From contig NIVC01001095.1 in NCBI GenBank assembly GCA_002269645.1, positions 1 to 64,000 on the forward strand: a DNA stretch of 64,000 nucleotides. Reading direction: 5' to 3'. Positions 4,341 through 50,400 of the stretch are shown here, piece after piece. The stretch is from Macrostomum lignano (taxonomy: Eukaryota). A model generated the notes under the pieces. It did no database searches and had not been told where the DNA came from. It was given only the letters and a program-made list of their open reading frames with translations. The first letter of the stretch is position 1. Every line of letters begins with the position of its first letter. A program made the translations under genes and the position numbers.

Positions 4341-4862
4341 TGTTCTGGAGCTGCCACTGGGAGCACGAGACTTGCCCGCAGGCGAACTGCCCGCCGAGAT
4401 TTGCCCGCAGGAGATTTGCCCGTCGAGATTTGCCCGCCGAGGTTTGCCCGCAGAGATTTGCCCGCAGTGCATTCTGCCCGCAGGAGATTTGCCCGTCGAG
4501 ATTTGCCCGTCGAGATTTGCCCGTCGAGATTTGCCCGTCGAGATTTGCCTGTCGAGATTTTCCCGCAGAGATTTTCCCGTCGAGATTTTCCCGTCGAGAT
4601 TTGCCCGCAGAGATTTGCCCGCAGAGATTTGCCCGCAGAGATTTTCCCGCAATGCAGTTTTAATCTTGCAAAAATCGACTTATACTTATCGAAATTATTT
4701 ACCTGCCAGATTTCAACCGTGTGAATCTGAAACTCTTACTGCCGCAAATGCATAAGATATTTCTTTGGCATTCCGCAGACACCTCAAATTTCCTTTCTGC
4801 TAAATTACTGTAGCCTGTTCTATAATCTTTTGTAGCAGCAATTTTTTGCTGGTGCCTGGTGG

Positions 4863-5070
4863 TAGGGATGGTAAAATCCCGGCTAGTTTCCAATCCCAGG
4901 ATTGTCGGGTTCGGGATATTCCTGTCCAACTCCCATAAAATCCCCAGCATTTTCAGTCCCAGCAAATCCCGAAAAATTGAAATCCCGCTGAATGGTGGGC
5001 AATTTTAAGTCCTGAGATTGGAATTCCAGGTGTTTGCTCTCAAATCCCGGTCCCGGTATTGGAATCTCTA
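4863..5070. mobile_element. hAT-like MITE nested at the inner edge of the left MULE TIR
   Basis: Ends TAGGGATGG...GGAATCTCTA with CCCGGGAT-type subrepeats. Near-perfect 8-bp TSD CCTGGTGG/GCTGGTGG. Absent from the right TIR. Same family as the elements at 54472-56109. Confidence 0.7.
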
Positions 5071-5788
5071 GCTGGTGGAGCGCTGTCTGTTTCAAATTCA
5101 CATGTCAGCCGCCTGGATTTTATCACCTCGATCTGCTCAACCACCGAACGACAAATCCAGTAAATAAGCCATGGAGTCCTATATGGTGCATGTCGGGGAC
5201 CCCACGACATTTTATAATCTGGCCCTTACATAGAGTATGAGTATGCAGAGCATTTTCTAAAAACATCGCCTTGTGCATGTGGCGACGGGCAGCTGGCTTA
5301 TCTATATAACAAATTTAATGAAATTTAAAGACCTGCTTATTAACTCCTCGCTAAAGATCCAGAAAGCAGTGTAAACAAAGTCTGATGTGATTCTTTCTCG
5401 CTAATTCTATCCTGGACCCCTATATCTCAATTCCCAGTCTTCGATAAAATGTCCATAAAATCTGTCTGGATTTCATTCTCTCTGGGTCTGGGTCTGGGTC
5501 TGGGTCTCTCATTCTCTCTTCTCTTTCTGATTGGCTGCAGGCACCCCACCCCTTTAGCCTCCTTCTTGTCTTGCGTGCCCCTCATTCCTTTGATCGCGCC
5601 TCCTAACCCAACCCCTCTCTTTGCCCACCCCTCCTTTCTCTCAACCCCCTGTTATCTCCTATAATATATAAATACACTGCCCTTCCTTACTGCTTAGTGT
5701 ATTCAACTTTAGTCTGGTCAAGTTAGACTGCGACAACTCTACATATATAAAGTGAATTTCAAGACAACGTTAATAACAAGCAGACCAC

Positions 5789-7231
5789 ATGGAAGCAGCT
5801 CCTCCCATCGCTGTGCGCTTTAGTGCAACAATTCGTGGGAAGCGCAAAGCAGCCTGCGAAGGCTACTACTTTACACTTGAAAGAACTAGCCTGGTCGACG
5901 AAGAGGTGTCATTTTGGCAGTGTGAAGAACGGCGCTTGGGATCATGTCCTGCTCGAATCCACATCCGGAATGGCTTTAAAGTGCGACAGCTGAATGACCA
6001 CAATCACGGACCTGACGGCTCTCGATTCCAAGTTCTTGAGGCTCTTCCGGAGATTAAATCGGATGCCAGGAACACCGTGAATTCGACGGCAAATATCGTC
6101 ATGGAACACACAAATGGGCTGTCTGAGTGTGCAGGCATAGCCCTTCCATCTCAAAGCGCATTAAAGCGGCAAGTTCAAGATGTTCGTCAAACGCACCAAG
6201 GTCTTCCAGTACAGCCGCTCAACCGAGCCGAGCTCATTATACCTGAAGAATTTCAATTCAACAACGGAGCACTGTTTCTGCTGCATGACTCCGGACAGGA
6301 CAACAATCGAATTTTAATCTTCGGTAGCGAGGATAACATTCAAGCCCTGCAATTGGCGACAGATTTCTTCTCGGACGGCACATTCGATGCCTCGCCGCCA
6401 CTGTTCGCTCAACTGGTGACAGTGCATGCCGAACTTCAAGGCTTCATAAGACCACTCATCTACGCATTGCTACCCAACAAGACCGAAGCAACGTACTGTC
6501 GATTTTACGAGGCTCTGCATCAATTGGCGCCGAACATGAGGCCACTTCGCTGGATGTCAGATTTTGAGCGAGCTAACATGAATGCTGTTCAGCATGTCTT
6601 TGGCATCGAGTCAACAGGCTGTCTATTTCACCTCGTTCAGTGCGTGTACAGAAGAGCAGTTGCTGAGGGATTAAAGCGTCAGATTGAAGAAGAAGATGGC
6701 GAGATGTCCGTCTGGCTGCGTTGCCTTTCTGCTTTGGCCTTTGTGCCTATTAATAGTGTTCCAGCAGCATTTGATGAGTTAATAATGCTGCCTGACTTTC
6801 CTGCGGAGATGGCTTCAACAGCAGACTATTTTGAAGCCCAGTGGGTCGGCCATCGACTTCCTGGCGGAGGAAGACGGCAGCCTCGATTCTCACCTTCAAT
6901 TTGGAATGTTCGTGAGCGAACTTTGAATGGACTTCATCGCACGAACAACGCAGTTGAAGCCTGGCATAGGAGGTTCCAGTCAATTCTGGGTTGCAGCAAT
7001 CCGAATGTTTTTCGGCTCATGAAGGACCTCAAAAAGGAAGTCGAACACCAGGCACTGCTGATGCAGCGAGCCAACGCTGGTGAAGCACCGAAGGAGCGGA
7101 AGAGATACGTGCAGAGCAACGCGATGCTTCTTCGCGTCACGCAGCGTTGGAACGTCGAAGGTGGCGGTCTGCCTGCTGACTTTCCTTTGCGTTCCTACCT
7201 GAGGGGCATCGCTCACCATTTGAAGAAGTGA
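5789..7231 (+). CDS. MULE transposase (FLYWCH zinc finger + DDE domain), 480 aa, intact
   Basis: FLYWCH-like motif GYYF..FWQCEERRLGSCPARIH..NDHNH; catalytic-type motifs SDGTF, MSDFE, CLFH and RTNNAVEAWH; no stops or introns. Confidence 0.93.
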   Translation: MEAAPPIAVRFSATIRGKRKAACEGYYFTLERTSLVDEEVSFWQCEERRLGSCPARIHIRNGFKVRQLNDHNHGPDGSRFQVLEALPEIKSDARNTVNSTANIVMEHTNGLSECAGIALPSQSALKRQVQDVRQTHQGLPVQPLNRAELIIPEEFQFNNGALFLLHDSGQDNNRILIFGSEDNIQALQLATDFFSDGTFDASPPLFAQLVTVHAELQGFIRPLIYALLPNKTEATYCRFYEALHQLAPNMRPLRWMSDFERANMNAVQHVFGIESTGCLFHLVQCVYRRAVAEGLKRQIEEEDGEMSVWLRCLSALAFVPINSVPAAFDELIMLPDFPAEMASTADYFEAQWVGHRLPGGGRRQPRFSPSIWNVRERTLNGLHRTNNAVEAWHRRFQSILGCSNPNVFRLMKDLKKEVEHQALLMQRANAGEAPKERKRYVQSNAMLLRVTQRWNVEGGGLPADFPLRSYLRGIAHHLKK

Positions 7232-8913
7232 TCTGATTGACAACGGTAGCTATCCTTACAATTTTGGTTTCTTGCTGCACTACACTAAGAAGCAATAAAT
7301 TTAATATTCTGTGCTCTAGTTTCATTGTGGCCTATATAATAATAGTTCCCGCTTCCATGGGATTCGCAAAGGCATTCACTTTGTGCACTTTAAACCCTCG
7401 TATTTAGCACTGCGGTTGCTTCTAGTTTCTGAAATTTGGTTAGGTCAGAGAAGTTCAGTGAACCCACAGTCTTCTGCCTACATAACAACTCACCCCTCCT
7501 CCCCATTCCCTTCCCTTCCTCTTGTAGGTTGCCATTGTAACTGTATCACTGAATGCTTTTGTTGCCATGTACTCCGTCATCCACCTGTTCCTGTCTTGCG
7601 ATGCACAGTAAATGTTAACAATTGGTCAATCATTTTCATATTGTTTTCATTATTGCTCAATCAAAAGTTATCGTTAAGCGAATGCAAAGTGAAAAATGCA
7701 GTAGAGTACAAAGTTGTTTTAAGTAATTGAACCCAAGGACTTGATTGAAAGGGAATGAATAGGGAAGGATCAAATGGATGTGCTGGCGCTGCACATCGGA
7801 AGATTTGCTCCTTTGGGGTGCTAAATTCCGTTAATGTGTGAGCTAAGTAGAGTGAAAATTGCTAATTTACCTACTGCAATTCATTTTCGCTTGTATTATG
7901 CATGCATAGTGATTGTACAATCGCTGTTGAACCTGTTAATTCGCAATTAATACCAATGATACCTACAGCCTCACCATCTTTTGACTTGCGACGCTTAAAT
8001 ACCTTGTTCTACTTTTTGCCAAGTGAATGTACAAAAATAGCTATTGTATTGTGCGGTTCTGTCAAGGGAAAAATAAAGTCATTACCTTATTAAAATATGC
8101 GACAAGCTATGTGAGCTGCTCCACCAGCAAAAAATTGCTGCTACAAAAGATTATAGAACAGGCTACAGTAATTTAGCAGAAAGGAAATTTGAGGTGTCTG
8201 CGGAATGCCAAAGAAATATCTTATGCATTTGCGGCAGTAAGAGTTTCAGATTCACACGGTTGAAATCTGGCAGGTAAATAATTTCGATAAGTATAAGTCG
8301 ATTTTTGCAAGATTAAAACTGCATTGCGGGAAAATCTCTGCGGGCAAATCTCTGCGGGCAAATCTCGACGGGAAAATCTCTGCGGGCAAATCTCGACGGG
8401 AAAATCTCTGCGGGCAAATCTCGACGGGAAAATCTCGACGGGCAAATCTCGACGGGCAAATCTCGACGGGCAAATCTCGACGGGCAAATCTCCTGCGGGC
8501 AGAATGCACTGCGGGCAAATCTCTGCGGGCAAACCTCGGCGGGCAAATCTCGACGGGCAAATCTCCTGCGGGCAAATCTCGGCGGGCAGTTCGCCTGCGG
8601 GCAAGTCTCATGGACCCGCTGCCACTGTCTCGTGGTATTTTTTAAACTTTTCGTTAGCAATAGCTACATGTACGTTCAATTAGGCTAACATATTTATTTT
8701 GCTCATACGTACAGTCCCTAATTATTGATCGCACCACTTTCATTCTTCACTGATCGCCCCACTCCAAATTACGCTCCCGTGTATTGTACGCTTTCACTCA
8801 GCTCATTAAATATATCGACCCAGAGCATCTCGCTCAAGAGGCCTTTTTCGTTTTTCATCGTTTCAATAGCGCAGCATATAGTTTGTCTTTCATCTCGAGT
8901 TATTCTAGCAACC

Positions 8914-9606: not shown

Positions 9607-9712
9607 CTGCGATGCGGAGGGTGGGGGTGTTCAACTTGGTAAATCTCTGTAGACTAGCTGCAATCCAACCTAAATAACCCATATTGGAGCTGCAATCCAA
9701 CCTAAATAACCC

Positions 9713-10614
9713 AGTAGTATAGGAAAAGTAGGTTTGAGCGCAACCCATTTTGAAAAATCACAAAAAACAGATAAAAATCGACTAAAAACAGGTGAAAATT
9801 GTCTGAAAACAGTGATTTTAGTGATTTTTCAAAAGTTTCGAAAAATTGCTTTTTGCGCGATTTCGTGAGTAAAACCACAAGAAATTTTTGATTCGTGGGT
9901 TAAAATAACCTATTTTCAGGTTTCATCATTTCAAAACTAGCATCAAATTTAATAATAGTCTTTTCTCCCATTGCATAACGCCCTTCAATAAGCCAATCTT
10001 ACTAGCTTTGCTTTTAACGATCAGTCAGCTACCATCTATGCATAAAAATTGTCCACTCGAGGCATACAATGCTTCTACAAAAGTCAATAATTTGCTCCTG
10101 CACATTCGCTTTGTCCCGAGGCTTTGAAATGGTTTTAATGCTGTTCTAGATTTGTACTTAAAGATAATAGAAGACATTCAAGAACATGGAGCGCTAATTT
10201 AAATTTTTCGTGGCATGCATACTCGACTACTAGAGCACTAACCGCAGCACTCAACATTTCTATTGGCTGCCAAAATTTCTGCCAAAACCAAAATTTTTGC
10301 CAAAATTTCTGCCAAAAAGTGTTTGGTTTTGGCATCCAATAGGAGTGGCTCGTGCAAATCTTTTGTGTTCACCCTCTATCTAGCTGTAAAAAAAGACATG
10401 AAGTGGGCCACGCAAGTTACAAACGAACAATGCTCTCGCGACCCTACCTACGGACGATTTCACTAACCCTTTTCTAAATTATGTATCTTAAAAATGGAAC
10501 AAATAGCAGGAGAAATTCTCCTCAAAGCAATTTTTATATTGTGACTCAGCTTTAACGTCGTGCGAAACCCACACTGAGTGAAGCGTATGGTCAAATAGGC
10601 TCTCGCAGGAACTC
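9713..10614 (+). repeat. Polinton left TIR (902 bp)
   Basis: Reverse complement of 16672-17573; only one mismatch noticed (AAAACCATTTC vs AAAGCCATTTC). Confidence 0.95.
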
Positions 10615-11003
10615 ACCAAACTAACTATACATAACCGCAGCACTGAACATTGCTATTGGCTGCCAAAATTTCTGCCAAATCTTGCGACCAAAATTTCTGC
10701 CAAAAAAGTTTTGGTTTTGGCAACCAATAGGAGCGTCTCATGCTAGTCTATTGTGTTCACCCCCTTTCTAAAAAGACACGAAGCGCACCACGTTACAGAA
10801 TCATGCAAGATAAGAGACTATACAATAGGCGAACCACTAGAGTATAATGGAGAAGGTCTTTTTTGATACTATAAGCACCATATCAAACTTAGTAAAAGAC
10901 AAATCTACCTTTCATAGAACAGGCAGGTGCAGCAGCAGGCTCTATTGCTACAGCAGTTAACGCAGCCTAAGTCTGTAGATTACTTAAATTTATTTTTATA
11001 AAA

Positions 11004-12362
11004 ATGGCCTTCAGTAAACCATTATTTCTAGGTTCTGCATTGGATATTCAGTCAGCTATAACAAAACTACCACCCATCTTCGCCACTGGAAAATATCCTG
11101 GCGAATTTCATATTCCAGGGTATTCTTTCACTGGCCCAGGTACAAATTTAGACAAGAGACTCAATCCAACTACAGACTGGCCTCGGTATGATAGTCTACC
11201 AATTAATCCAATTGATTGGACTGCTTACTATCATGACAAAAGCTATAGAGATGCTGTAAAGACGTCTTCAACTCCAGAGGAAGCCCTAGCAAAGAAGCAT
11301 ATTGCTGATGAAAAAATGATAGCTGATTTAGATGCTATTCCAACCAGCGACTTGTCGGTAAAGGAGAGACTCATTAGAAATCTAATAAAGCGTATTATCA
11401 ATGCTAAAGTTCGGTTTGGATTAGGAATTCATACTCACAACCCCAACAATTGTATAGACTGTCTAACAATTTATGGTAAGGGTCTTAGCTATGAAGATGC
11501 AGTAAAATTGCATAGGGAATACAGAAAGCCAAGAGTATTTAGAAAAATGATTCACTATGCAAAAGACACAATTTGGCATGCAGATATCATTATCCTACCG
11601 CCCGAAAGAGGTTACAAATATGCTCTCACTATCATAGATGGTTTTACACGTTACGCCTGGGCAGTTCCTTTGAAAACAAAGACGGGAGCGGAAGTTGCAG
11701 AAGCTTTCCAAAAAGTATTTAAGGAATCAGGAAGACGATCAGAGAGACTTTGTGTAGATGAAGGCAAGGAGTTTTATAATCAGCATATGTACAAGCTATA
11801 CTCGTTTTCAAAAGACAACATTAGAAAGAAGGATGAAAGGGGTGAATATATTAACAAGATGTTTTCAATTTATGGCGAGTCCAAGAATGCAATGATTGAG
11901 AGGTTCAATCGTACTCTCACAAATAAACTCTGGTTTGAATTTGATCTACAGGGTAATCAGAAGTGGCTCCACACATTGCCAGCTATTGTTGAAAAATACA
12001 ACAACACAATCCATTCTGAGATTCTGATAACTCCTTCAGAAGCATCTAAACATCCTGAGCGAGTACCAAAGCCAACTTTCGAGTATTCAAATGAGAAACC
12101 AAACTTCAAAGTAGGTGACAAAGTTCATATCTATAGATATAAGGAGCACTTTGAAAAGGGTCGAAGAGGATATTGGAAAATTTCAGAAGTGTTTAGGATA
12201 AAGAAAATAGTTTACTCCAATCCCATAACCTACATTATTGAGGATGAGAATGGAGAAGAAATCATTGGATCATTTTACAAATCCCAGCTTCTACCAGCAA
12301 ATTTTTCAACTAAAAATGAGCGCCTATCGAACAAACTGCAAACGGGCGAAAGGTCAGATTGA
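11004..12362 (+). CDS. Parvovirus-type PLA2 domain fused to a Polinton retroviral-like (rve) integrase, 452 aa
   Basis: N-terminus GYSFTGPG...PINPIDWTAYYHDKSY...ADEKM (Ca-loop and HD dyad). C-terminus WHADI / CVDEGKEF / NAMIERFNRT (D,D,E), then a Polinton-type FKVGDKV..NPITY..EEIIGSFY tail. Confidence 0.92.
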   Translation: MAFSKPLFLGSALDIQSAITKLPPIFATGKYPGEFHIPGYSFTGPGTNLDKRLNPTTDWPRYDSLPINPIDWTAYYHDKSYRDAVKTSSTPEEALAKKHIADEKMIADLDAIPTSDLSVKERLIRNLIKRIINAKVRFGLGIHTHNPNNCIDCLTIYGKGLSYEDAVKLHREYRKPRVFRKMIHYAKDTIWHADIIILPPERGYKYALTIIDGFTRYAWAVPLKTKTGAEVAEAFQKVFKESGRRSERLCVDEGKEFYNQHMYKLYSFSKDNIRKKDERGEYINKMFSIYGESKNAMIERFNRTLTNKLWFEFDLQGNQKWLHTLPAIVEKYNNTIHSEILITPSEASKHPERVPKPTFEYSNEKPNFKVGDKVHIYRYKEHFEKGRRGYWKISEVFRIKKIVYSNPITYIIEDENGEEIIGSFYKSQLLPANFSTKNERLSNKLQTGERSD

Positions 12363-12738
12363 AACGTCTGATTCACAACTACTAGCTGATAAAGAGGGTG
12401 AAGGAATTGGTGATATGATCAGTGGTGTCACAAACTTTTTATCAAATCATGGAAGTAAAATTGTGAGTGGAGCTGATGCAATAGGTAAAACAGCTACCAC
12501 AGCGAAGAACATATTCGATGCGAAGAAATCATACAGTGACATGTCTAAAGCAGGTGAGGAACTGGAATATATTAAAAAGAAACGTAGAGATAAAGAAGCA
12601 AAGAAAAGAATGGAAGAAGAGCAACAGATAGCTTCTCAATCAAATAAGGCTATTCAAGATATTGTTAAAAAGGCTCTAGGAACAGCAGAACAGTCTCAAG
12701 TGTCTTTGAGACAAGGCAATGGTTTGAAGAAATTCTGA
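12316..12738 (+). CDS. Polinton small ORF, adenovirus pVI-like virion core/membrane-lytic candidate (140 aa from ATG 12316)
   Basis: KEGEG|IGDMISGVTNFLSNHGSKIV (GxG followed by an amphipathic helix), basic KKKRR stretch, C-terminal QGNG|LKKF. TAAAAATG start context; overlaps the integrase 3' end. Confidence 0.55.
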   Translation: MSAYRTNCKRAKGQIETSDSQLLADKEGEGIGDMISGVTNFLSNHGSKIVSGADAIGKTATTAKNIFDAKKSYSDMSKAGEELEYIKKKRRDKEAKKRMEEEQQIASQSNKAIQDIVKKALGTAEQSQVSLRQGNGLKKF

Positions 12739-12746
12739 CCTTAAAA

Positions 12747-12998
12747 ATGAGCGAGAAAAACACTGAAGCAAGACTCAATCGATATGTTCGAGAGGGAAAA
12801 CCAAGATATGTTACTGTAAATAAGCAAAAGCAATATCTTTCTAAAGAGAAGATTCGAGAATTGCAAGAGAAACAGAAAGAACATGAAGGTGGAATAATTC
12901 CTCTATTAGGCTTACTACCAGCAATTTTGGGTGGTATCGGAGCAGCCTCAGGAGTTGGTACAATGATTGCAAAAAGTGTTAATTTAGGTAATTTATAA
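12747..12998 (+). CDS. Adenovirus pX(mu)-like small ORF, probably truncated at the deletion junction
   Basis: HEGG|IIPLLGLLPAILGGIGAASGV resembles the pX C-terminus RGG|ILPLLIPLIAAAIGAVPGIASV. Confidence 0.65.
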   Translation: MSEKNTEARLNRYVREGKPRYVTVNKQKQYLSKEKIRELQEKQKEHEGGIIPLLGLLPAILGGIGAASGVGTMIAKSVNLGNL

Positions 12999-14080
12999 AG
13001 ACCGGGTGCATTTTTACCGCACAACCTTGAGTGCTCGGCCAACACGTTTTCACTTGTGTAAACAGTCATGCATGTTCTGCATAAAAATGACTTGTGATTT
13101 ACACGCTTTCCAGTTTGTTTTGAAACTAATGTTGTAAGATTTTTTATCAGACAATAATGAGTCTTACCATCTTCCTCCAGGTATAGTAAATCTACTACAT
13201 AAGTTCGTTGATTATGAGGTGAGACATAGAGATGTTGTAGTGTATCTGGGAATTTACCTTCATAATACAGCACATTAACAGCAAACTCTTCATTTAGTCT
13301 TTCAAACTTTTTTATATCTTTTATTCTCATGGGGAATTGGATATCGGTGAGATTAAGTTCTTTTTCATATGGTTTATATTTTGACACTCGATAACCATCT
13401 TTATTTTGTGGATGTTTAACAGCTAATACACACCAGAGGAAGCATTTCTCATCATCATTCTGAATGTTAAGAATTGATCGACATTTTTTAATTTCATTGT
13501 TAGTAAAGAAGGATCCTCCCTGAATGCTAGAAACCTTGGCAACTCTGATGTAGATAGATTTTATCTGCACAAAGACATTATCTGATCCCTTCTCACAGAA
13601 CTCATCAATGAACTTTTCCAATGTCTCCTGTCTTTCGCTAAGGGCAGTGTCATACTGTGAATCTGACTGAATATTGTAGAATCCACTTTCATTGTCATAG
13701 ACTGTGAATGGAGGAATGTCTTCGTTAAAATTCTTTTTGAATTCTAGTTCAAAATGCAAGTTGAACTTACTCCGTCCACCATCTCTAACTTTCTCCAACA
13801 CTGCTTTAATTGCATCTTCATACTGAATAAAAACCTTTGTTATATAACCTTCATTAACATTCCTAATGACATACTCTGAAATTTCTGACTTCTTATTATA
13901 CTTCTCTCTAAAGGATTTATGTAGTATTATTTCATCACCAATCTGCGGAGCTGCCACTTCATCTTCTTTGGACTCCGCTATAGGCTCATTATCTGTGTGC
14001 TTTTGCTGCTGACGCCGAAACCGCTCAGCTTGAATGTATTGTTCAAATTCTTCATCACTCATCTTTCTGAGTTGTTCCAT
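12985..14080 (-). pseudogene. Protein-primed DNA polymerase B, N-terminal (terminal-protein) part only; catalytic core deleted
   Basis: Polinton pPolB N-terminal signatures ILNIQNDDEKCFLWCVLA..HP, IQFPMRIKDIKKFE..N, HYCLIKNL and zinc knuckle CRTC..EHSRLC. After GLYKLP the frame runs antisense through the pX-like ORF; no Exo or Pol motifs. Confidence 0.88.
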
Positions 14081-14187
14081 TTTTTATAAAATAAATTTAG
14101 CAGGAAAATTATGTAATGACGTTATAAATTTATTGTGGCATCCACAGGATTAAGCAATTAGAAATGTATAAGCGATATTACAATAGG

Positions 14188-14417
14188 CAGAAAAAGAACC
14201 AGATACTGCAGTATTCGATGTGAAAAAGCAACGAGCAAAAAAGAACCAGATACTGCAGTATTCGATGTGAAAAAGCAACGAGCAAAAAAGAACCAGATAC
14301 TGCAGTATTCGATGTGAAAAAGCAACGAGCAAAAAAGAACCAGATACTGCAGTATTCGATGTGAAAAAGCAACGAGCAAAAAAGAACCAGATACTGCAGT
14401 ATTCGATGTGAAAAAGA
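14188..14417. repeat. 47-bp tandem repeat (about 5 copies), each with the 12-bp palindrome ATACTGCAGTAT
   Basis: GCAAAAAAGAACCAGATACTGCAGTATTCGATGTGAAAAAGCAACGA at 47-bp spacing (14282, 14329). Confidence 0.93.
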
Positions 14418-14476
14418 ATAGTCAGCATAATGAGAGTCAGATGTTATGATTCACAACGCGCGCAATAAGATTTTCA

Positions 14477-15112
14477 TCAGATCAGAAGTGCATCTTCATC
14501 CTCTTCCTCCAGCATCTCCAGGGCTTTCTCAGCGTACTTGATTATAGAACGTAGGCGAAACAGTGAGATGCCACAACGCCACAGAATTGGATGTGCTGTG
14601 CTTAGACGAGCCACTCGGACTAAATAGTTCCCCCACGCGGACTTAAAGCGTAGTCTAGACAAAAATACTTTATACTCCTCGTCACTCAATGAAAGCTTCA
14701 TTCTTATTAATATCTGACCAGACTTAATTCCATACTGCAAGCCCCGGCACTGTAGCTCGTTTATCATTTTATCAATGGAATTAAGTTCTGTAATTGCATC
14801 CTGAAATTGATACTCTCCGTCCATAAATTCATTAATCTCTCCCGGCTCTTGATGCTCCATCGAATCCCGCAGTATTTTAGCAGCTTCTGCTATTCGTTCC
14901 TTTGTCTTGTCCACTCTCTCCAATCTACCTCGAAAAGTTGGAATAGCAAACTTCTTCCTATTAAATTTTCTAGCAACCTTGTTATATTCTCCTATCCATT
15001 TCTTACAATGCTTTAAATCCCCACTACAAAAAATCTCCTTGATAAGACTATCGAGGTCGGATTCGAATGATGCCATTGCTGCCTCCATACGGGATTCTAA
15101 AATGTAGGGCAT
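14477..15112 (-). CDS. Polinton accessory ORF, 211 aa, unknown function (weak DUF3102-like helical pattern)
   Basis: Non-repetitive open frame inside the TIRs; pattern G..L...K.......F.......F.....Y; acidic C-terminus. Confidence 0.65.
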   Translation of the reverse strand: MPYILESRMEAAMASFESDLDSLIKEIFCSGDLKHCKKWIGEYNKVARKFNRKKFAIPTFRGRLERVDKTKERIAEAAKILRDSMEHQEPGEINEFMDGEYQFQDAITELNSIDKMINELQCRGLQYGIKSGQILIRMKLSLSDEEYKVFLSRLRFKSAWGNYLVRVARLSTAHPILWRCGISLFRLRSIIKYAEKALEMLEEEDEDALLI

Positions 15113-15828
15113 TATAACTATTTAGCTAGTATCAAAATCAACACAAGAACAAAACTCTTATTTCTTACCTTTTCGTTGTTGCTGAGTTGTGTGATTTATA
15201 TGTTCACTCTGTTTGCTTTAGTCTGTCTGATAAACGTGTGTTGTATTGCTTCCAAAACTAAAGCGGGTTTTTATCAAGCCACCTAAGCGACTTCTTACAT
15301 GCGCACTGAGTCATGAAAATAGAGAAAAAACTGCCATGGCCGTGCTTTAGAGTTGGGGTTTAAGAGGTGCTCAATTCCTGCTGCAGCATGCTGATATTCA
15401 AAACCTATTGATAAAGGAACAATAAATTCTTATTGACTCAACTGCTAAACTGTTAGGGTTAGGTTAGTTGCTTTGCTTCATTCTTGATGCGAAAAGCTAG
15501 AAAGAATGTTGAGTCATTCTGCTTTAAAGAAAAAAGGAACATAGTTTCTTTCAGTGTGCATTGTGCAGTGCGATGCCATGCATCTCAAGTAACTACAATT
15601 CTGACTCATGTGGATAGAATTTTTTCTGCATCTGGCATGAGCCTGCAAAGTTGCATTCCATTCACCCGGTGTCGCTTTCTCATTGGTTGTCATCAATGAG
15701 ATACCAATGAGAATTGAGGTTATGCGCTGCTTTTGTATTTTCACATAATATTAATACAGGAATGAATTTGGAAAGATGGCTGATAATTCTCTCCAAATTC
15801 ATTGCAACAATAAAAAGCTTTAATAGAC

Positions 15829-16356
15829 ATGCCATCCGAAAAGGAACTTCGCAAGAGATATAGGGATCATCGAAAGGAATTCGAACTCACAAAGCAAAAG
15901 ATTCGAAGGCTCATGCCATTAACTATATTTGCAGATCTAGGTTCTGAGAGACTAATCAATAAGCTACAAGGTTTAGATACATTCAAGTCCTTTACGGAGG
16001 AGGATAAGCTCCTGAAGCTTCTGAAGGAAAATGTGGCAAAAAGAAAAAGCATGCAAGCTATTGCACTATCCTATCAAAACCAAGCTCAAGCCATGCAAGC
16101 GATTGGTGATTTGGATACTGAAGATGATAGCCTTCCACCACCCTATGAGATCGCTGCTGACAACCGAGGCACTGCTGACATCCAAGGCACTGCTGACATC
16201 CAAGGCACTGCTGACAACCGAGGTACTGCTGACATCCAAGGCACTGCTGACATCCAAGGCGCTGCTGACAACCGAGGCACTGCTGACATCCAAGGCGCTG
16301 CTGACAACCGAGGCACTGCTGACAACCGAGGTACTGCTGCTTCATCAGCTAACTAA
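15829..16356 (+). CDS. Polinton accessory ORF, 175 aa, with a PPPY motif and a hexapeptide repeat tail
   Basis: Helical charged N-half, DSLPPPYEI, then an 18-bp repeat encoding TAD(N/I)(R/Q)G. Confidence 0.6.
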   Translation: MPSEKELRKRYRDHRKEFELTKQKIRRLMPLTIFADLGSERLINKLQGLDTFKSFTEEDKLLKLLKENVAKRKSMQAIALSYQNQAQAMQAIGDLDTEDDSLPPPYEIAADNRGTADIQGTADIQGTADNRGTADIQGTADIQGAADNRGTADIQGAADNRGTADNRGTAASSAN

Positions 16357-16671
16357 AACTAGATGATTGATGACTTGTGGCGATCATGGACTAATTTGTC
16401 AATATTAATAAATTGCTCTAATGTTTTAATTTTGTTCTTCATAGGCGTTTGAGGACTTTTTGTTACTGTTTTAATAATCACTACTTTAATATTTAAAATA
16501 CAAAACCATTATTATTATTTGCATAAGTTATGCGAAGTGTATCCTAAAAACGGATTTTAAGGAGCTGTTATCTTTTTTAATTTTTTATAATTAATTTTCA
16601 TTATAGCAATTTTGATTTACGTGAATTAGATTTAACTTTGTGTAATGGAAGCTGTCCTTGACCAATTTTTA

Positions 16672-17573
16672 GAGTTCCTGCGAGAGCCTATTTGACCATA
16701 CGCTTCACTCAGTGTGGGTTTCGCACGACGTTAAAGCTGAGTCACAATATAAAAATTGCTTTGAGGAGAATTTCTCCTGCTATTTGTTCCATTTTTAAGA
16801 TACATAATTTAGAAAAGGGTTAGTGAAATCGTCCGTAGGTAGGGTCGCGAGAGCATTGTTCGTTTGTAACTTGCGTGGCCCACTTCATGTCTTTTTTTAC
16901 AGCTAGATAGAGGGTGAACACAAAAGATTTGCACGAGCCACTCCTATTGGATGCCAAAACCAAACACTTTTTGGCAGAAATTTTGGCAAAAATTTTGGTT
17001 TTGGCAGAAATTTTGGCAGCCAATAGAAATGTTGAGTGCTGCGGTTAGTGCTCTAGTAGTCGAGTATGCATGCCACGAAAAATTTAAATTAGCGCTCCAT
17101 GTTCTTGAATGTCTTCTATTATCTTTAAGTACAAATCTAGAACAGCATTAAAGCCATTTCAAAGCCTCGGGACAAAGCGAATGTGCAGGAGCAAATTATT
17201 GACTTTTGTAGAAGCATTGTATGCCTCGAGTGGACAATTTTTATGCATAGATGGTAGCTGACTGATCGTTAAAAGCAAAGCTAGTAAGATTGGCTTATTG
17301 AAGGGCGTTATGCAATGGGAGAAAAGACTATTATTAAATTTGATGCTAGTTTTGAAATGATGAAACCTGAAAATAGGTTATTTTAACCCACGAATCAAAA
17401 ATTTCTTGTGGTTTTACTCACGAAATCGCGCAAAAAGCAATTTTTCGAAACTTTTGAAAAATCACTAAAATCACTGTTTTCAGACAATTTTCACCTGTTT
17501 TTAGTCGATTTTTATCTGTTTTTTGTGATTTTTCAAAATGGGTTGCGCTCAAACCTACTTTTCCTATACTACT
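16672..17573 (-). repeat. Polinton right TIR (902 bp)
   Basis: Reverse complement of 9713-10614. Confidence 0.95.
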
Positions 17574-18277
17574 TAACCCATATTGGAGCTGCAATCCAAC
17601 CTAAATAACCCATATTGGAGCTGCAATCCAACCTAAATAACCCATATTGGAGCTGCAATCCAACCTAAATAACCCATATTGGAGCTGCAATCCAACCTAA
17701 ATAACCCATATTGGAGCTGCAATCCAACCTAAATAACCCATATTGGAGCTGCAATCCAACCTAAATAACCCATATTGGAGCTGCAATCCAACCTAAATAA
17801 CCCATATTGGAGCTGCAATCCAACCTAAATAACCCATATTGGAGCTGCAATCCAACCTAAATAACCCATATTGGAGCTGCAACCCAACCTAAATAACCCA
17901 TATTGGAGCTGCAACCCAACCTAAATAACCCATATTGGAGCTGCAACCCAGCCTAAATAACCCATATTGGAGCTGCAACCCAACCTAAATAACCCATATT
18001 GGAGCTGCAACCCAACCTAAATAACCCATATTGGAGCTGCAATCCAACCTAAATAACCCATATTGGAGCTGCAATCCAACCTAAATAACCCATATTGGAG
18101 CTGCAATCCAACCTAAATAACCCATATTGGAGCTGCAATCCAACCTAAATAACCCATATTGGAGCTGCAACCCAACCTAAATAACCCATATTGGAGCTGC
18201 AACCCAACCTAAATAACCCATATTGGAGCTGCAATCCAACCTAAATAACTCATATTGGAGCTGCAACCCAACCTATA
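17574..18277. repeat. 32-bp minisatellite interrupted by the Polinton (left part at 9655-9712)
   Basis: Unit TAACCCATATTGGAGCTGCAATCCAACCTAAA on both sides of the element. Confidence 0.95.
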
Positions 18278-18914
18278 TAACACACAATAGACCTCAATGT
18301 TCAATCAGTCTCTCCGACTAAAGAACAGACTTCTCACTACTTGCAGTCTAGTTCAAAGCATTACAAAGTTCAGCACTATGTAAATGATTCAATAAAGCAA
18401 ATATAAGCAGAAATATGAAACTACACAATTGACTTAGCTAAAGAACTAGCCCAGATTAGACTTGTCAAATATTAACATTTAGTCAGGTGTTTCAATACGT
18501 TCTTCTATACAATATAACTATACTGCAAACCAGATAAAAAGTTCAAGCATAGTTGTTGGAAACTTTTATAATTTTATCACACAAACCATGGGATATTTTT
18601 CATTTAAAGCAGAATTCATTTCTTTCCAATTTAGCCTACCTGGCATCCCAGGGTTTGGAATCCAATTGACAACAGTCACCTGCTTGTCTGAGAGAGTTGT
18701 TGCCAAGCAACCTTATCTGGGTTGTTTTTTTATCAATTTATATGTAACAAACCACACAATTGAAGTAGTTATTATGACAGAACAGTGCAGAACAAAGAGA
18801 AACTGTCTGTGTATTGTGCGTCATTACTTTGAAGCTAGATGAAATTCACTTCAATTTTTACACATCTGGTAGTTATTGACAATCAATAATAATTGTATAA
18901 TTAATGGTACTAGA

Positions 18915-27303: not shown

Positions 27304-29418
27304 AATTATTCCTATTATCATTGTATGTATCAATCATGACTTATTGATCAATGGTAAAAATCTGTTTAAATATGCTAGTACTTACTGCATAACTTCAGTT
27401 TCTTACTCTAAATTATTTTCTAAATTTTCAACATTTAACATTTAGTCTATAAAATATAAAGGTAAAAAGTCAAAGTCACAGTAAAAAGTAAATGAGTCAC
27501 ATAGACATAATGTAGTATTCTAAAGCAGGAAAGTAAAGCAGGTTACTAAATTAATGTTCTAGAAATACTAGAAAATAATCTAGAATGCTAAAAGAATAAC
27601 AATGCCAAAATATCTAGAAAATAATATAGTGGGAAATCAAAGTTATACCAATCTCTTCAGACTGCCCTGCAGCTAAGTTATATCAATCAATAGTATATAA
27701 GTATATAATTGGGATTGAAACCTATTAGTTTATTTAGCCATTCTTGGATGTAACCTAGGGATTCACCTGGCCATTTCTATTGGCAACATATATATGTAAA
27801 TTGCTATTAGACAAAATAGTAATCATGTGACTCAAACTGTAGCTAAGCTATTAGCTGTACATCTAACTATTAGGGCAGGAGTAATCAATTATTATTATTA
27901 TTTAATAGCAATATTTCTATACATATGTTACTATTGCCATTTATATATAATTAACATTACCAAAAGTCAGTTGAAACACTTATGGGGTTTCCCTAGAAAC
28001 AGGGGCATAGCCAGGAATTTCTCATGGGGGGATGCAAGGATATGACTATGAGTAGCTGCTACTACTTCAAAGGCAGTTCACAGGAACATTAAGCGCCATA
28101 AATCAAATACTGACCAGCAGTGGTAGATCTAGAGGTTTATTTTAGTGGGGAGGGGGGGTTGGTCCAAGTTTGGGACGCCAACAGGAGTATAAGGACCATC
28201 AATTTTTAAGCTAGGGGTGCAAAAATGTATATAGGGGGTGAAAAATCAATCTTAGGGTCTTAGTTCAATCTTAGCGCAAACTTAGGTTTTTGGGGGGCGC
28301 AATATGTTCTGTCAAGCTATTTAAGGGGGGTGGCCTCCCTCCCCCCCCATAAATCCTGTTGACTAGGCCCATGGGGGCGGGATACATCCTTGCCTACACC
28401 ACTGCCCATAAACATTTCTTTTTGCCAATAGTTCAGGAAGACAACAAACAATGGACTTGGTGGTATTTTCTCTATATGTTCTCTAGACTCATATTTTTAA
28501 ACTTCTAGTGAGGATCTTTCCTCTTCAATCAATATATTTTATAAGCTAACACAATGTACACAAGCAAGGAGGAATAGGGGAAGAAAGTATAATGGGGAGG
28601 CCCAATAGGAGCCATTAGCCAAAGGAGATTCATGCGTTACTTAAGGGTTACATGGCTGGGCTTCTCACTTGCCAATCATCAGGGCTATTTTTAGGCATGT
28701 AGATCTTGTGCATCTGAGAGTTTCTGCCAAGGCTAGACGCTTGTTCACATATCACGCGTGTTTTGGTTGATTTCTCCCATCCTCTTGCTAATGGTGCTTT
28801 TGTTTCACTTCACGGTGGCAGATTTAGGGGGAGGCATACAGGGTGTGCATTCCCTGTCAAGTTAGAATTTTTTTTCGAATTTATTTTATTTTTTATTTAT
28901 TTTTCCATTTAAAATTTTCAAGACTGTATGTACCTGCCAAAAGTATAGATTTTTCTCTTATATTCCATCTTCTTTCCACTCTTATTTGGCCTGCAGCAAT
29001 GATCTAGATTTCTTATCTGGCCCCTTTAACTAAAAAGTTTACTGACATAGTCTAATTGTATAGATAGGTTTTTTAATATACCATACAAAGCTAGTCATGT
29101 TATCCTTTGCTATGAATGCTTGAGCCTTGGCATACTAATGTGATAGCCATTTGCAAAGATACCTAAGTTAAAAAAATAATTTTTAACAAAATTTTGTTGA
29201 ATTCACAATATTGCCAAATCACTAGACATTGGGTTTATGTTTTAGAAGATAGAATTAAGGATCAATAGATGCAATGATAATTTGATTGATCAAGGAGGTG
29301 ACAGGCACAATTGTAGTACAAAATTAGCACAATAATGCTGTTTTGCATCTTTTACATGTATATGAAAAAAATATCTCTACAATTTCTGACGAAACTGATT
29401 TTCTGCTCAAAGCAAAAG

Positions 29419-30756
29419 ATGACCAAGTCACCAGCACCACCGCCATTGCCCCGAATTCAAATACTAATGGTTGCCGCCCTGTTCCTTGGCTATTTCCTAC
29501 TATTCTGGGCTAGAAAAGCGCTGACATTTGTCATACCATTTGTATTGTCAGCTGGCGATATGAGCCAATCGGAGCTGGGCCTGCTATTGAGCTGGCAGCA
29601 GGCTGGATACACTGTGAGCAAGTTTATCGCTGGATTAGTAGTAGACCGGGTCAGTCCCAAGGCCCTATTGTCTGGCGCATTCGGTCTCAGTGGTATTGTA
29701 GGCCTAACTTTGGCAGCAACAGAATCGCTAGCGATGCGTTGCGTTTTAATGATCGCTAGCGGCATTGTTATTGGCGTGGCCTGGCCTAGCACAGTAAAAA
29801 TTGCCAAGGCTTGGGTTGCCCCATTTGCATTTGGCACAGCTTGGGCCGTGCTATCCACAGCTATGAACGCCTGCGGCATTGTAGGCGCCCCTCTGAGCGT
29901 TCAACTAAGCATAAATTATTCTTGGCGAGCCAGCGTCCAGTTGCCGTCGGTCTGTTGCTTAGCCTTCTGTCTGCCGTTTGTACTGTTGATTGCGTCGGAG
30001 CCGTCGGTTGTTCAGCTGTCCAGCCAGACTAAAACAGAGCGGCCAGACGATGCCAAATCGGCGCCAAAATCCAGCTGGTTAACCGATTGGCTGCAACTGT
30101 TGACAGATCCAGTGTGCCTGTCCTGCAATCTTGGCTACATGTCGGTGAATGCCTGTCGCTACTCAGTCGATTGGTTGCCAGTGTTTTTATCGGAATCGCG
30201 TAATCTAACGCCGACCGATGGGGCAGCATTTACCAGCTGCCTGCAGGCTGGAGGCATTGTTGGTTCTCTGACAGCCGGGTTGCTTGCAGATGCCGCGTTT
30301 GCCGCCGCATCTTCCTCCTCAGCGTCCTCCTCTCCGAGACGTTGGCAATTCAACCAGCCTCGTCTGTTAGTCATATGCTGTTTCAATCTGCTGTGCGTAG
30401 CATTCCTTCACACGATTGTCGCTCTGTCAAATCCTGATTGGCCAGTTGTCGCCTACCAAGCGCTTGGCTTCTGTCTCGGCGTTTGCCTATTCGGTCCCGT
30501 GGCCGTCTACGGCGTGATTGCGACAGAGAGTGCGCCAACCAGGCTAGCATTTACTAGTCACGCATTCTGCGCGCTCTTTGCCAATGTTGGCGCCATGGTT
30601 AGCGGCTATCCGTTGGGCTTGGCGGCCTCTAAATTTGGCTGGCCGGCATCTGTGGCTGCTCTTGAGTTTTGGGTTCTGGTAACAACAGTTGGACACGCGA
30701 TAGTGCTTCATAGAATCAGTTTGTCGGCAAAGGAGAAGCAATTAAAGGCTGATTGA
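29419..30756 (+). CDS. SLC37A4: Glucose-6-phosphate exchanger-like MFS transporter (SLC37A4/G6PT), intronless
   Basis: RKALTFVIP, SKFIAGLVVD, WPSTVKIAKAW..FGTAWAVLSTAMN and FGPVAVYGVIATESAP..TSHA..FANVG match SLC37A4. Likely start MTKS at 29419 (the track ORF starts at 29335). Confidence 0.9.
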   Translation: MTKSPAPPPLPRIQILMVAALFLGYFLLFWARKALTFVIPFVLSAGDMSQSELGLLLSWQQAGYTVSKFIAGLVVDRVSPKALLSGAFGLSGIVGLTLAATESLAMRCVLMIASGIVIGVAWPSTVKIAKAWVAPFAFGTAWAVLSTAMNACGIVGAPLSVQLSINYSWRASVQLPSVCCLAFCLPFVLLIASEPSVVQLSSQTKTERPDDAKSAPKSSWLTDWLQLLTDPVCLSCNLGYMSVNACRYSVDWLPVFLSESRNLTPTDGAAFTSCLQAGGIVGSLTAGLLADAAFAAASSSSASSSPRRWQFNQPRLLVICCFNLLCVAFLHTIVALSNPDWPVVAYQALGFCLGVCLFGPVAVYGVIATESAPTRLAFTSHAFCALFANVGAMVSGYPLGLAASKFGWPASVAALEFWVLVTTVGHAIVLHRISLSAKEKQLKAD

Positions 30757-47477: not shown

Positions 47478-50400
47478 TTGATTTTCATGCAGCACCTTCA
47501 GCCAAATAGGCTTACCAAAAAACTGCTGTGCAACCAGTCGAATGACTCAACCCATCTCGATCCTACAGTTTTGTATAACGACAATCTTACACTGGAAAAC
47601 AGATTGTCCGAACTTTTCCAGCCTGTGCGGACTGTTAAGCAAGCCATGCCTATAGTGCAGCAGGAAGTTCAACCGGCCGATGGGGTTGACGTTGATTGCT
47701 TGAAGAAAATGGAGGATAACCTGACAGAGCTGGAACAGGAGTCGCAGAGCCTGTTTCAGAAGAAAATGCGATTGATGAAGGCGGAGCAACAGAGAAAGAC
47801 AGAGAAGATAGAGGAAAAGCCTCGTCCGAAGAGAAGTGACAAGGAGATGAGGATTCTTGAAGTTGAAAAGGAGACAAAAAGACTAATCAAGCACAATGAA
47901 GAGCAAAAACAGTTGATACGTGAAATGGAACAGCGGCAAGAGGCTTCGAAAGAGCAAGCAGAAGAAAATGATTCTGTCTCCTCCGAGGAAAGCCAGGAAT
48001 CCGAACAGCATGATCCAACTATAGATGCTGATGAAGAGGTAGCGCAGATGATGGCGTTGGCCCTAGGTTTTAACCAGGTTGACCGCACAGCTGAACCCGT
48101 CTGGGCCGAGTGGAACGACAAGTCAGATGACGACCCCATGATTACTGATAACCCTAACGAGGTCAGTGAGTTTTGCTCTGATTTGATGAACAGTTTTGGA
48201 AGTGCATTCGAATCGCTTAAGCGCCGTGGTTATTACGATTCAAAAGATGATATTGACAGCGAGCTGATTAGAGACTACAAAGCGATGATTGCCAACAAGG
48301 ACGATTTAAAATGTTTATTTGGGATCGGCAAGTGCGGTCCCAACAAGAAGCTTGACTGTCCCGTTCATACTCGTTCGGGTGCAGGTTTCAAATCAGGTGC
48401 CTTTTGCTGTCCTGGTTCAAGCAAAGATAAGCAATCAGCACCGTCAGCTCAGTCTGATGATCATAAATCAACGTTTCGAGATGCTCAGTCATCTTCATCT
48501 CTCCAGCAACCATCAACAGCTCGAGGTGCCCGATATTCTTCATCTCAGCAGCATCAATCAACAGCTCGAGGTGCCCGATATTCTTCATCTCAGCAGCATC
48601 AATCAACAGCTCGAGGTGCCCGATATTCTTCATCTGAGCAGCATCAATCAACAGCTCCAGATGCTCAGTCGTCTTCATCTCGCCAGCATCAGTCAACAAC
48701 CCGAGATGCTCAGTCATCTTTATCTCACCAGCATCAGTCAACAGCTCGAGATGCTCAGTCGTCTTCAACTCGTGAACATCGAACTGAAAAATTACAGCCA
48801 TCAATTTGCGATCTGCCGGCGTCGACGCCACCTGGTCAAATGATTCTTTCAACGCCACCACAGGATCAGCCGATTCCATCGACGCCACCTGATCGAATCA
48901 TTCTTTCGACGCCACCGGGTCAAATAATTCTTTCGACGCCACCGGGTCAAATAATTCTTTCGACGCCACCGGGTCAAATAATTCTTTCGACGCCACCTCA
49001 GGATCGGCCGATTCCATCGACCCCTCCTAATCAGCTGATTCCGCCTTCGTCAAAAATGAATCCACAGCCGCCAACATCGTCTATTGGGTCGCCACCTAAA
49101 AAGCGTGATCGACCGGCGCAGCTTAAAGACTTGCTTTACGGATACAGTTCATCAATCTGCGAATTCTTCGAGCACGATGCTGAGTGCAAAAATCTTGTAT
49201 CTGATTGTCAAAAGCGAGAGTCGTCTGCACGTGATTCTACGGCCGAAACTGGTATTCAGCATGCCCATAAAGGGGATATCCTCAAACCTGTCCCAGTTAG
49301 GCAAAAGCAACGTGGAATGCCAAGAAAGGTTATGAATCTGAACTCAAACGAAGCTAATGCTCCGGAATATCGACGGCGTGGCCCAAACGAAAGGTATTAT
49401 GAAAGTATGAATCCAAGTGCGGACTATCATTACCAGGAACGTAGTCCAAGTCGTCATAAACATTCAAGTCCACATCGACGACAGGATCCAAGACAACATC
49501 ATGGATATCCAAGTCCGAAGCGTCATCGAGACTATCCAAGCCAGAGTCATCATCACCAGCATCGGAGCCCGAATTGTTCAAATCGTCAGCGGGATTCGAA
49601 CCAAAGCGCTAGTCATGAATATCCAGTTTCGAGTCGTCACCACAGATTTCCGAATTCCAGACGTCATCACGAATCTCCAAGCCCGACTCGTCTTCATGGA
49701 TCTCCAAGCCTCAGACGTCCTAACGGATATCTTAGCCCGATCCGTCCTCATGGATATCCTAGCCCGATTCGTCCTCACGGATATCATAGCCCGATCCGTC
49801 CTCGTGGGTATCCTGGTCCAATCCGTCCTCACGGATCTCCAAGCTCCAGGCGTCCTCACGTATCTCCAAGCTCCAGGCGTCCTCACGTATCTCCAAGCTC
49901 CAGGCGTCCTCATGGATCTCCAAGCTCCAGGCGTCCTCACGGATCTCTAAGCTCCAGGCGTCCTCATGAATCTCCAAGCTCCAGACGTCCTCAAAGATCT
50001 CCAAGCCCGAGACGTCATTACGGATCCCCCAGCTCCAGGCGTCCTCACAGATATCCAAGCCCGCTACGTCATCACGGATCACCAAGCCCGAGTCGCCATC
50101 ACGGATATCGTAGCCCGCTACGTCATCACGGATCTCCAAGCCCGAGTCGCCATCACGGATATCGTAGCCCGCTACGTCATCACGGATCTCCAAGCCCGAG
50201 TCGTCATCACGGATCTCCAAGTCCGAGTCGTCATCACGGATCTCCAAGTCCGAGTCGTCATCACGGATCTCCAAGTCCGAGTCGTCATCACGGATCTCCA
50301 AGCCCGAGTCGTCAGCACGGATCTCCAAGCCCGAGTCGTCAGCACGGATCTCCAAGCCTGAGCTGTCATCGCGGATATCCTAGCCCGAGCCGTCATCGCG

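Follow-up and report, generated by a model that had tools for sequence, protein, structure and literature searches.

We analysed a 64,000-nucleotide stretch of the Macrostomum lignano genome (assembly GCA_002269645.1, contig NIVC01001095.1, positions 1 to 64,000 of the forward strand; hereafter the window), in which a Polinton/Maverick element carries a phospholipase A2 (PLA2) and an integrase in a single gene. The fusion is one uninterrupted open reading frame (ORF) of 452 amino acids (11004..12362, + strand). Its N-terminal part is a parvovirus-type PLA2 domain (aa 28-141; 11085..11426, +; Pfam PF08398) ending in K-x-[KR]-[LF]-G-x-G. This is followed by a low-confidence linker with a lineage-specific CxxC and a second GxG motif (aa 142-162; 11427..11489, +), and then by an RVE integrase consisting of a short N-terminal helix, a core with D194, D252 and E299, and a beta-barrel C-terminal domain (11490..12299, +). 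Using Pfam, we found that Phospholip_A2_4 (PF08398) matched aa 34-110 at 36 bits (cut-off 23.9, E 9e-9) and rve (PF00665) matched aa 186-262 at 39.5 bits (cut-off 32.6). The residues of the PLA2 domain are the calcium loop G44-P45-G46, H77-D78, Y81 and D102. An original prediction, made from the DNA alone, had described a 452-aa ORF with GYSFTGPG, YYHDKSY, AD, FGLG, CxxC and YGKG ahead of an intact D,D,E integrase, and all of these were found where it had placed them; the profile searches and structure prediction that it had suggested likewise recovered both domains.

An AlphaFold2 model based on a 70-sequence alignment (mean pLDDT 84) comprises two folded halves, a helical N-terminal domain and a C-terminal half with the integrase core and beta-barrel, joined by a disordered, low-confidence linker (aa 141-159). 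Structural comparison of this model using VIA-align matched aa 164-435 to foamy-virus integrase (Z 20.0, root-mean-square deviation 3.4, 247 residues aligned). For aa 30-144, the match was rice PLA2 (Z 7.9, deviation 4.0, 95 aligned), a middling Z for a helical domain. Rice PLA2 was the top row outside the DDE/RNase H fold; Foldseek lists were dominated by integrases, and searching solved structures by sequence with the PLA2 half returned nothing better than E 0.1. Pfam detected no chromodomain on the window integrase and no Adeno_PX on the 452-aa protein, and the fusion had no match in the phage collection. The CxxC and YGKG of the linker are present in the window ORF, but most of the 70 aligned fusions have gaps at these positions; we therefore regard both as local to the window lineage and rejected them as features of the family.

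The fusion is widespread. Searching the genome with the window protein returned 94 matches from 93 scored of 2191 candidates, including at least two subfamilies, A (~97% identical to the window protein) and B (~60%), and the reading frame between PLA2 and integrase is unbroken in both. A single TAA reported in most of the 60%-identity matches was considered as an inter-domain stop and dismissed, as the subfamily B protein is shorter and naturally ends there. Outside this genome, 95 of the best 120 relatives carry the fusion (77 with a whole PLA2 and 18 with a partial one, cut by the gene call), in a search limited to proteins of 248-791 aa, which favours fusions. The other 25 have no PLA2 in the gene call, and many of those are truncated. 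Fused relatives reach down to 31% identity, some carry a chromodomain, and the Joint Genome Institute (JGI) automatic name of one (P0090) lists both domains. With the PLA2 half as query, integrase sequence was present in only 22 of the best 150 representatives; stand-alone PLA2 is therefore still common.

Both halves of the fusion are under purifying selection. Among natural copies in this genome, pairwise ratios of nonsynonymous to synonymous divergence (dN/dS; pairs not independent) were 0.11-0.28 for exon 1, which lies upstream of an intron site described below. The PLA2 portion of exon 2 gave 0.03-0.18, and the integrase core gave 0.07-0.14. Across the 70 aligned fusions, G44, D71, H77, Y81, D102, K135, G139, D194, D252 and E299 are invariant, and D78 is kept in 69. 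In an integrase tree, the window protein falls in a starred clade in which 21 of 22 rows are in-frame fusions; in a 51-row subset tree, the window clade is entirely so (8/8, 99*). A single origin is not demonstrated by these trees because fusions occur in other clades too. The genome also holds an abundant third Polinton family (L239-L253, L257, L258 and L025). Its PLA2 stands alone between GG and GxG motifs, its integrase lies on the opposite strand, and one copy adjoins a subfamily A element. As this family keeps the two proteins apart, the fusion is not required, a point that counts against the precursor reading given below.

Other combinations of virion genes were encountered among the relatives, namely protease-integrase-chromodomain proteins (P0118 and P0106, also P0110), as well as PLA2-pX-protease in one frame and pX-PLA2 (L049:340-1371 (-) and P0191). 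Separately, 58 Polinton-type integrase loci (L259-L316) were present in bacterial or archaeal metagenome-assembled genomes and are likely mis-binned eukaryotic or viral contigs.

Polintons typically generate 6-bp target-site duplications and have AG ends. The element that carries the fusion gene spans 7,861 bp (9713-17573) and is flanked by 902-bp terminal inverted repeats that differ at one position in 902, the left beginning with AGTAGT (9713..10614, +) and the right lying in inverse orientation (16672..17573, -). It is bordered by a 6-bp target-site duplication (9707..9712, + and 17574..17579, +), the left copy of which lies within a 32-bp satellite. Downstream of the fusion gene, longer sister copies carry two small core-type genes, a double jelly-roll capsid (PF21738, E 2e-13) and an A32-like ATPase (PF04665, E 8e-6), together with a likely minor capsid protein, a protease, an F5/8-domain protein and a polymerase ORF; the capsid, ATPase and protease genes are missing from the window copy. 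On the basis of the repeats, the duplication, the RVE integrase and the capsid, ATPase and protease genes of its sisters, the element is a Polinton/Maverick (Polintoviricetes), in agreement with the label 'Polinton integrase' that the gene had been given.

As regards processing of the fusion, GxG[LIVFM] motifs are enriched in the ORFs of 18 loci (84 seen against 33 expected), and in subfamily A they occur in the core-type proteins and the fusion linker and are absent from the capsid, ATPase and protease ORFs. The linker of the fusion holds two such motifs, and GxG recurs right before the integrase helix in several lineages. The protease family, represented in the longer copies, matches African swine fever virus S273R (E 9e-12) and adenain (E 2e-9). 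Peptidase_C5 (PF00770) was matched by 10 of the 14 members aligned, though not by the element's own protease singly. Adenain motifs are given as (MIL)XGXG or L(LR)GG in the available text of bioRxiv 10.1101/341131, and the second, lineage-specific linker site fits (MIL)XGXG in both subfamilies here. Several observations weigh against processing at these sites. The conserved first site, FGLG, does not fit (MIL)XGXG, and its middle residue is hydrophobic, a position usually occupied by S, D, K, E or N at the other GxG sites. FGLG is also the usual C-terminal end of this PLA2 family, stand-alone proteins included, and may for that reason be structural. We found no preference for M/I/L or K/R at P4 (K/R 13.5% at 74 sites, with a background of 13.6%), and many fusions have almost no linker. 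Cleavage at GxG sites by an adenain-like protease, as had been put forward, thus gains from the protease of the longer copies and the enrichment of the motif and loses from the off-motif first site; cutting of the fusion by the element's own enzyme is plausible.

Among more distant relatives, the two domains are often adjacent without sharing a frame. A first survey of 112 viral and metagenomic loci identified 13 in-frame fusions, 27 loci with PLA2 directly upstream but without one frame shared with the integrase, 13 with PLA2 elsewhere and 59 with no PLA2 within the DNA examined. We kept only the 17 loci in which both domains are unbroken (8 in frame, 9 at -1), dropping 18 adjacent loci with further breaks or a cut PLA2, and 59 further loci added one each at -1, +1 and 0. 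In total, of 20 distant loci with intact adjacent PLA2 and integrase, 10 are at -1, 9 in frame and 1 at +1. Immediately after the end of PLA2, 9/10 of the -1 loci and 0/9 of the in-frame loci have an A-AAA-AAN heptamer in phase, and in 8 of the first 9 loci at -1, the integrase has no ATG of its own. Of the 9 intact loci that have the heptamer, 3 show a strong hairpin close behind it (z -3.9 to -4.4). Two loci share a 12-bp stem 5 nucleotides (nt) downstream, in which two pairs are changed on both sides, two are changed on one side and none is broken; a shuffle control of this hairpin (134/500) was uninformative with two sequences. Forms at -1 occur in at least three starred clades, and one (L151) is nested among unfused integrases, whose N-terminal domain it retains. 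These data suggest that many of the distant relatives likely use a Gag-Pol-type -1 frameshift, which stays a prediction because a homopolymer error also gives -1 and the run decays in dead copies. No frameshift-type family was found in this genome, and the window linker has neither an A run nor a slippery heptamer; the window lineage appears to hold a hard-wired, in-frame version.

A second feature of the gene concerns the PLA2 active-site loop. Of the 94 genomic matches, 68 begin at aa 44-47 because, in sister copies, the codons for G44 and P45 of the calcium loop are separated by an insertion. The corresponding site in the window copy is empty (11135..11136, +), and the intron model had no match in the window. 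Among 35 close copies identified by an exact 23-mer, 17 carry the insertion and 18 do not. By its sequence features, the insertion is a group I intron. RF00028 was matched above the Rfam gathering score in 4 of 9 sources (71-91 bits) and below it in L034, L027 and L045. Predicted pairings agree: the 5' exon GGT and a complementary guide form P1 in 28/28 intron-bearing loci with a 5' exon, and also in L045, with the final U of the exon pairing with G. The paired P4/P7 core with its G-binding pair is present as well, P7 being paired in 6/6 aligned introns, with three compensated pairs between the subfamilies. We rejected a spliceosomal intron and a nested transposon as explanations of the insertion on the basis of the RF00028 matches and the P1/P7 pairing.

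The two subfamilies carry different forms of the intron. In subfamily A (L014:2725-3615 (-), L015, L024 and L157-L166), it measures 864-891 nt, with one copy of 492, and ends in G in 13/13 copies, as does that of L045. It holds a restriction-endonuclease-like ORF, open over 211-228 aa in 9/13 copies, which matched Pfam RE_Eco47II at E 7e-5, below cut-off, and has Atlas neighbours in restriction-endonuclease-like clusters at 0.90-0.94; a single-sequence fold had a pLDDT of 41 and was not used. The product may be a candidate PD-(D/E)xK homing endonuclease. In subfamily B (L030, L034, L035, L037-L043 and L171-L175), the introns are ORF-less and 301-333 nt long, with 173 genome candidates, of which 40 were scored, all at least 92% identical. 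Terminal A is present in 15 of 16 of these introns, and both exons are still conserved; a group I intron ending in A has a precedent in Coxiella. The subfamily A intron ORF is 63% identical over 121 aa to a free-standing ORF upstream of the gene in subfamily B, where the slot is occupied by a PD-(D/E)xK-like ORF in 4/14 copies and by an HNH/endonuclease VII-like ORF in 10/14. In a viral contig (L045; 33% identical), an intron interrupts the corresponding codon, and the gene upstream is of the GIY-YIG type. In both subfamilies, synonymous divergence (pS) near the intron site, in exon 1 and the start of exon 2, exceeds that of the integrase core by a factor of 2-4 (0.18-0.47 compared with 0.08-0.27), as expected from homing or from escape from cutting.

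Because purifying selection acts on both exons, the intron is predicted to self-splice; an internal Met could still yield the integrase without splicing. Contigs from four sequencing runs were aligned to an intron-bearing copy. In two runs they represented the known intron-less DNA allele, and one contig (depth 3.3, one run) shows a join at the predicted 5' splice site in which four letters are substituted. This altered junction matches none of the 35 genomic junctions examined, and, as splicing and an unsampled allele would look the same here, it was not used. Beyond this genome, the PLA2 match starts exactly at the intron site in 7 of 120 relatives (P0002, P0005, P0023, P0027, P0034, P0058 and P0059), which suggests that further lineages may carry the intron. 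The intron model found none beyond its training member in 97 sources and none in the prokaryotic-bin loci, and Rfam found no further introns in 11 more sources, a search that missed L045. Stubs comprising exon 1 and the 5' end of the intron were also observed near element ends, away from the main gene (L009, reverse complement 757-1500, and L213:7062-7248).

We propose, with a probability of roughly 55%, that the gene encodes a virion precursor that couples an entry lipase to the integrase and is probably cut by the element's protease. The PLA2-integrase would be made as one precursor and packaged into the particle through its PLA2 part, with cleavage probably occurring at a GxG site by the adenain-like protease. 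The lipase would then help the particle to leave the endosome, and the integrase would arrive together with the genome. In many relatives, a -1 frameshift would yield much PLA2 and little PLA2-integrase, as with Gag and Gag-Pol, and in about half of the close sisters, the group I intron would have to self-splice before the lipase can be made. The -1 slippery site between the domains in relatives fits polyprotein logic, and the integrase is fused to a protease in another clade (P0118 and P0106). The available text of published reports describes PLA2X as a proposed virion core protein (bioRxiv 10.1101/341131) and parvoviral PLA2 as acting in entry (PMC8502044). The polyprotein interpretation first offered for this gene is partly supported, through the conservation and selection of the fusion and the protease of the longer copies; FGLG is weakened as a cleavage site, and the CxxC is not conserved. 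That interpretation included neither the frameshift forms nor the group I intron of the sister copies.

The same proteins might be packaged or membrane-bound and stay uncut, the helical PLA2 acting as a permanent tether in place of the integrase N-terminal helical domain. Fused integrases start at a short ELH helix without the ~45-aa N-terminal domain of unfused ones, linkers can approach zero residues and the conserved GxG is off the adenain motif, all of which favour a tether. However, three related integrases whose gene calls lack PLA2 (P0097, P0111 and P0117) start at the same helix, the -1 form L151 keeps a normal N-terminal domain, the modelled linker is disordered, and GxG recurs directly before the integrase helix in several lineages; we consider an uncut tether unlikely. 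Somewhat more doubtful is that the coupling serves as an expression device, setting the amount or timing of the integrase relative to a late gene, with the integrase acting in the producer cell and not in particles. Wherever the integrase ends up, a -1 frameshift reduces the amount made, and a high copy number (the 94 matches from 93 scored of 2191 candidates) can arise within one cell lineage. Against this, whole clades have the 1:1 in-frame fusion, which brings no down-regulation, both independent partners, PLA2 and protease, are of virion type, and a strongly selected lipase has no obvious use in intracellular copying.

Sequencing or decay could also produce part of the picture, with all relatives really in frame and the -1 forms being homopolymer errors or dead copies without any programmed frameshift. 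In favour of this are the breaks that fall in A runs, the +1 and 0 offsets at the same run in decayed copies, the in-frame rows interleaved with -1 rows in the tree and the derivation of each locus from a single contig. Further points tell against the frameshift: loss of one A by error likewise gives -1, 6 of the 18 dropped loci are at +1, which marks the A run as a decay hotspot as well, and a strong hairpin behind the heptamer is missing from 6 of the 9 intact loci that carry one, pseudoknots not having been searched. Set against them, intact loci are at -1 rather than +1 by 10 to 1 (sign test, p 0.012; loci not fully independent), the five loci with a run of exactly six A are all in slippery phase (5/5), such a run being found in 0/9 in-frame loci, 12 other runs of at least six A in the same genes are unbroken, and the shared hairpin is conserved with compensatory changes. 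We therefore regard error or decay as an improbable source of the whole pattern. That the window fusion itself is a local artefact of one decayed copy or of assembly, a concern raised at the outset in the form of a stop or frameshift between the domains, is suggested by nothing other than the internal deletion of this copy; the same frame in two subfamilies ~60% identical and the 95 fused proteins among the best 120 outside relatives make it virtually negligible.

Taken further, the precursor reading would imply that a wide set of animal-associated Polintons converged on Gag-Pol delivery of a lipase-fused integrase, in frame or by -1 frameshift, and that an animal nucleus holds a working, endonuclease-mobilised, self-splicing group I intron in the lipase active-site loop, including an A-ending form, caught with its endonuclease both beside and inside it. 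We hold this compound proposal tentatively and put it a little short of an even chance.

The remainder of the window element reflects an internal deletion. Next in the element comes a basic, likely core protein of 164 aa from its first ATG (12244..12738, +; function assigned by inference), with two GxG motifs, overlapping the end of the integrase. It is followed by a truncated pX-like protein (12747..12998, +; 150 aa with four GG/GxG motifs in longer copies), whose likeness to pX comes from an amphipathic GG-IIPLL stretch and has no Pfam match behind it. The deletion junction (12983..12984) marks the loss of ~9.5 kb that included the genes for capsid, ATPase and protease and the greater part of a probable protein-primed DNA polymerase (pPolB) gene, and is peculiar to this copy, being spanned by 1/40 scored matches. 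An N-terminal remnant of this putative pPolB gene follows (12984..14080, -); the polymerase, a 1275-aa ORF in a longer copy, was assigned from motifs and position, and the window has the 5' remnant only. Two further element ORFs encode 211 aa with no family above cut-off (14477..15112, -) and 175 aa with an 18-bp tandem repeat (15829..16356, +).

The element adjoins the edge of a 32-bp satellite array (9656-9712 and 17574-18284); the flanks of nine other element ends differ, several of them also repetitive-looking. Among the other copies, L018-L020 (C781) have ~9 kb of other DNA inserted in the right terminal repeat, and the capsid gene is split in several of the subfamily A copies examined. 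Elsewhere, the window contains a Mutator-type transposon (4352-8624) with 503-bp inverted repeats (97%) and a FLYWCH-MULE transposase ORF (5789-7231), a single-frame major facilitator superfamily transporter closest to animal SLC37A4-like clusters (29335-30756, +), which points to an animal host, and a 1242-aa ORF (47487-51215, +) that contains tandem repeats of 27 bp and 45 bp and matched nothing in Pfam.

A lipase-integrase precursor with a Gag-Pol-like frameshift would bear directly on how Polintons deliver the integrase to an incoming genome and on whether they spread as particles. It would also account for the splitting or truncation of these genes in automatic gene calls. The available text of PMC3984707 records group I introns from organelles, bacteria, phages, some viruses and the nuclear rDNA of fungi, plants and algae, and gives them as scarce even in the mitochondria of animals. 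An animal nucleus with well over a hundred intron-like candidates in its integrated elements, within a gene whose spliced protein is under selection, would extend this range, and the series would serve the study of endonuclease capture and of splicing without a terminal G.

We found no description of a PLA2-integrase fusion, of a -1 frameshift between PLA2 and integrase or of a group I intron in an animal Polinton in the literature searched, with Repbase, most subscription journals and figure contents outside its scope. The available text of four reports mentions PLA2 in Polintons, not as an integrase fusion (PMC3671162, PMC4642659, PMC7805220 and PMC11296320), that on Spodoptera Mavericks has PLA2 as a 'CAP' ORF in a separate gene (PMC5803895), and that on adintoviruses predicts a -1 frameshift only for the penton C-terminus (PMC11071296). 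The nearest relatives are alpha adintoviruses and Group 2 Maverick-Polintons with PLA2X, which, from the portions of PMC8502044 and bioRxiv 10.64898/2026.06.19.733378 available, share terminal repeats, the RVE integrase, the A32-like ATPase, the double jelly-roll capsid, an adenain-like protease, a parvovirus-type PLA2 and probably pPolB. Their PLA2X is described as a separate gene with a C-terminal pX, whereas here PLA2 forms the N-terminus of the integrase and a pX-like gene lies separately downstream. The window fusion is not a PLA2X: the integrase follows the PLA2, and Pfam gave no Adeno_PX match on the protein. Parvovirus VP1u PLA2 (PF08398) shares the calcium-loop GPG, HDxxY and the downstream D; it is tethered to a capsid protein, whereas the domain described here is tethered to an integrase and has a helical C-terminal part that is longer and ends in K-x-K-[LF]-G-x-G.

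Retroviral Gag-Pol and Gag-Pro proteins are made by a -1 frameshift at an X XXY YYZ heptamer. The relatives studied here resemble this arrangement in having a structural partner upstream, the integrase in the -1 frame, a heptamer and a virus-coded protease, and some of their loci have a hairpin 5 nt downstream. They differ in that this is a DNA virus-like element, the partner is a lipase and the frameshift is predicted, with the window lineage in frame. For the intron, the closest parallels are protist Polinton-like viruses, in which group I introns are known, and collaborative homing in phages, for which a model has been given (PMC12220804 and PMC3984707, available portions); the available text of two further reports mentions none in animal elements (PMC10748475 and PMC11161782). 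Shared with these systems are an RF00028 intron of ~300 nt in a protein gene and an endonuclease-like ORF beside or inside the intron. Unlike them, the introns described here sit in multi-copy elements integrated in an animal nuclear genome, interrupt the active-site loop of a PLA2, show the free and embedded states of one ORF family within one genome and, in one subfamily, end in A.

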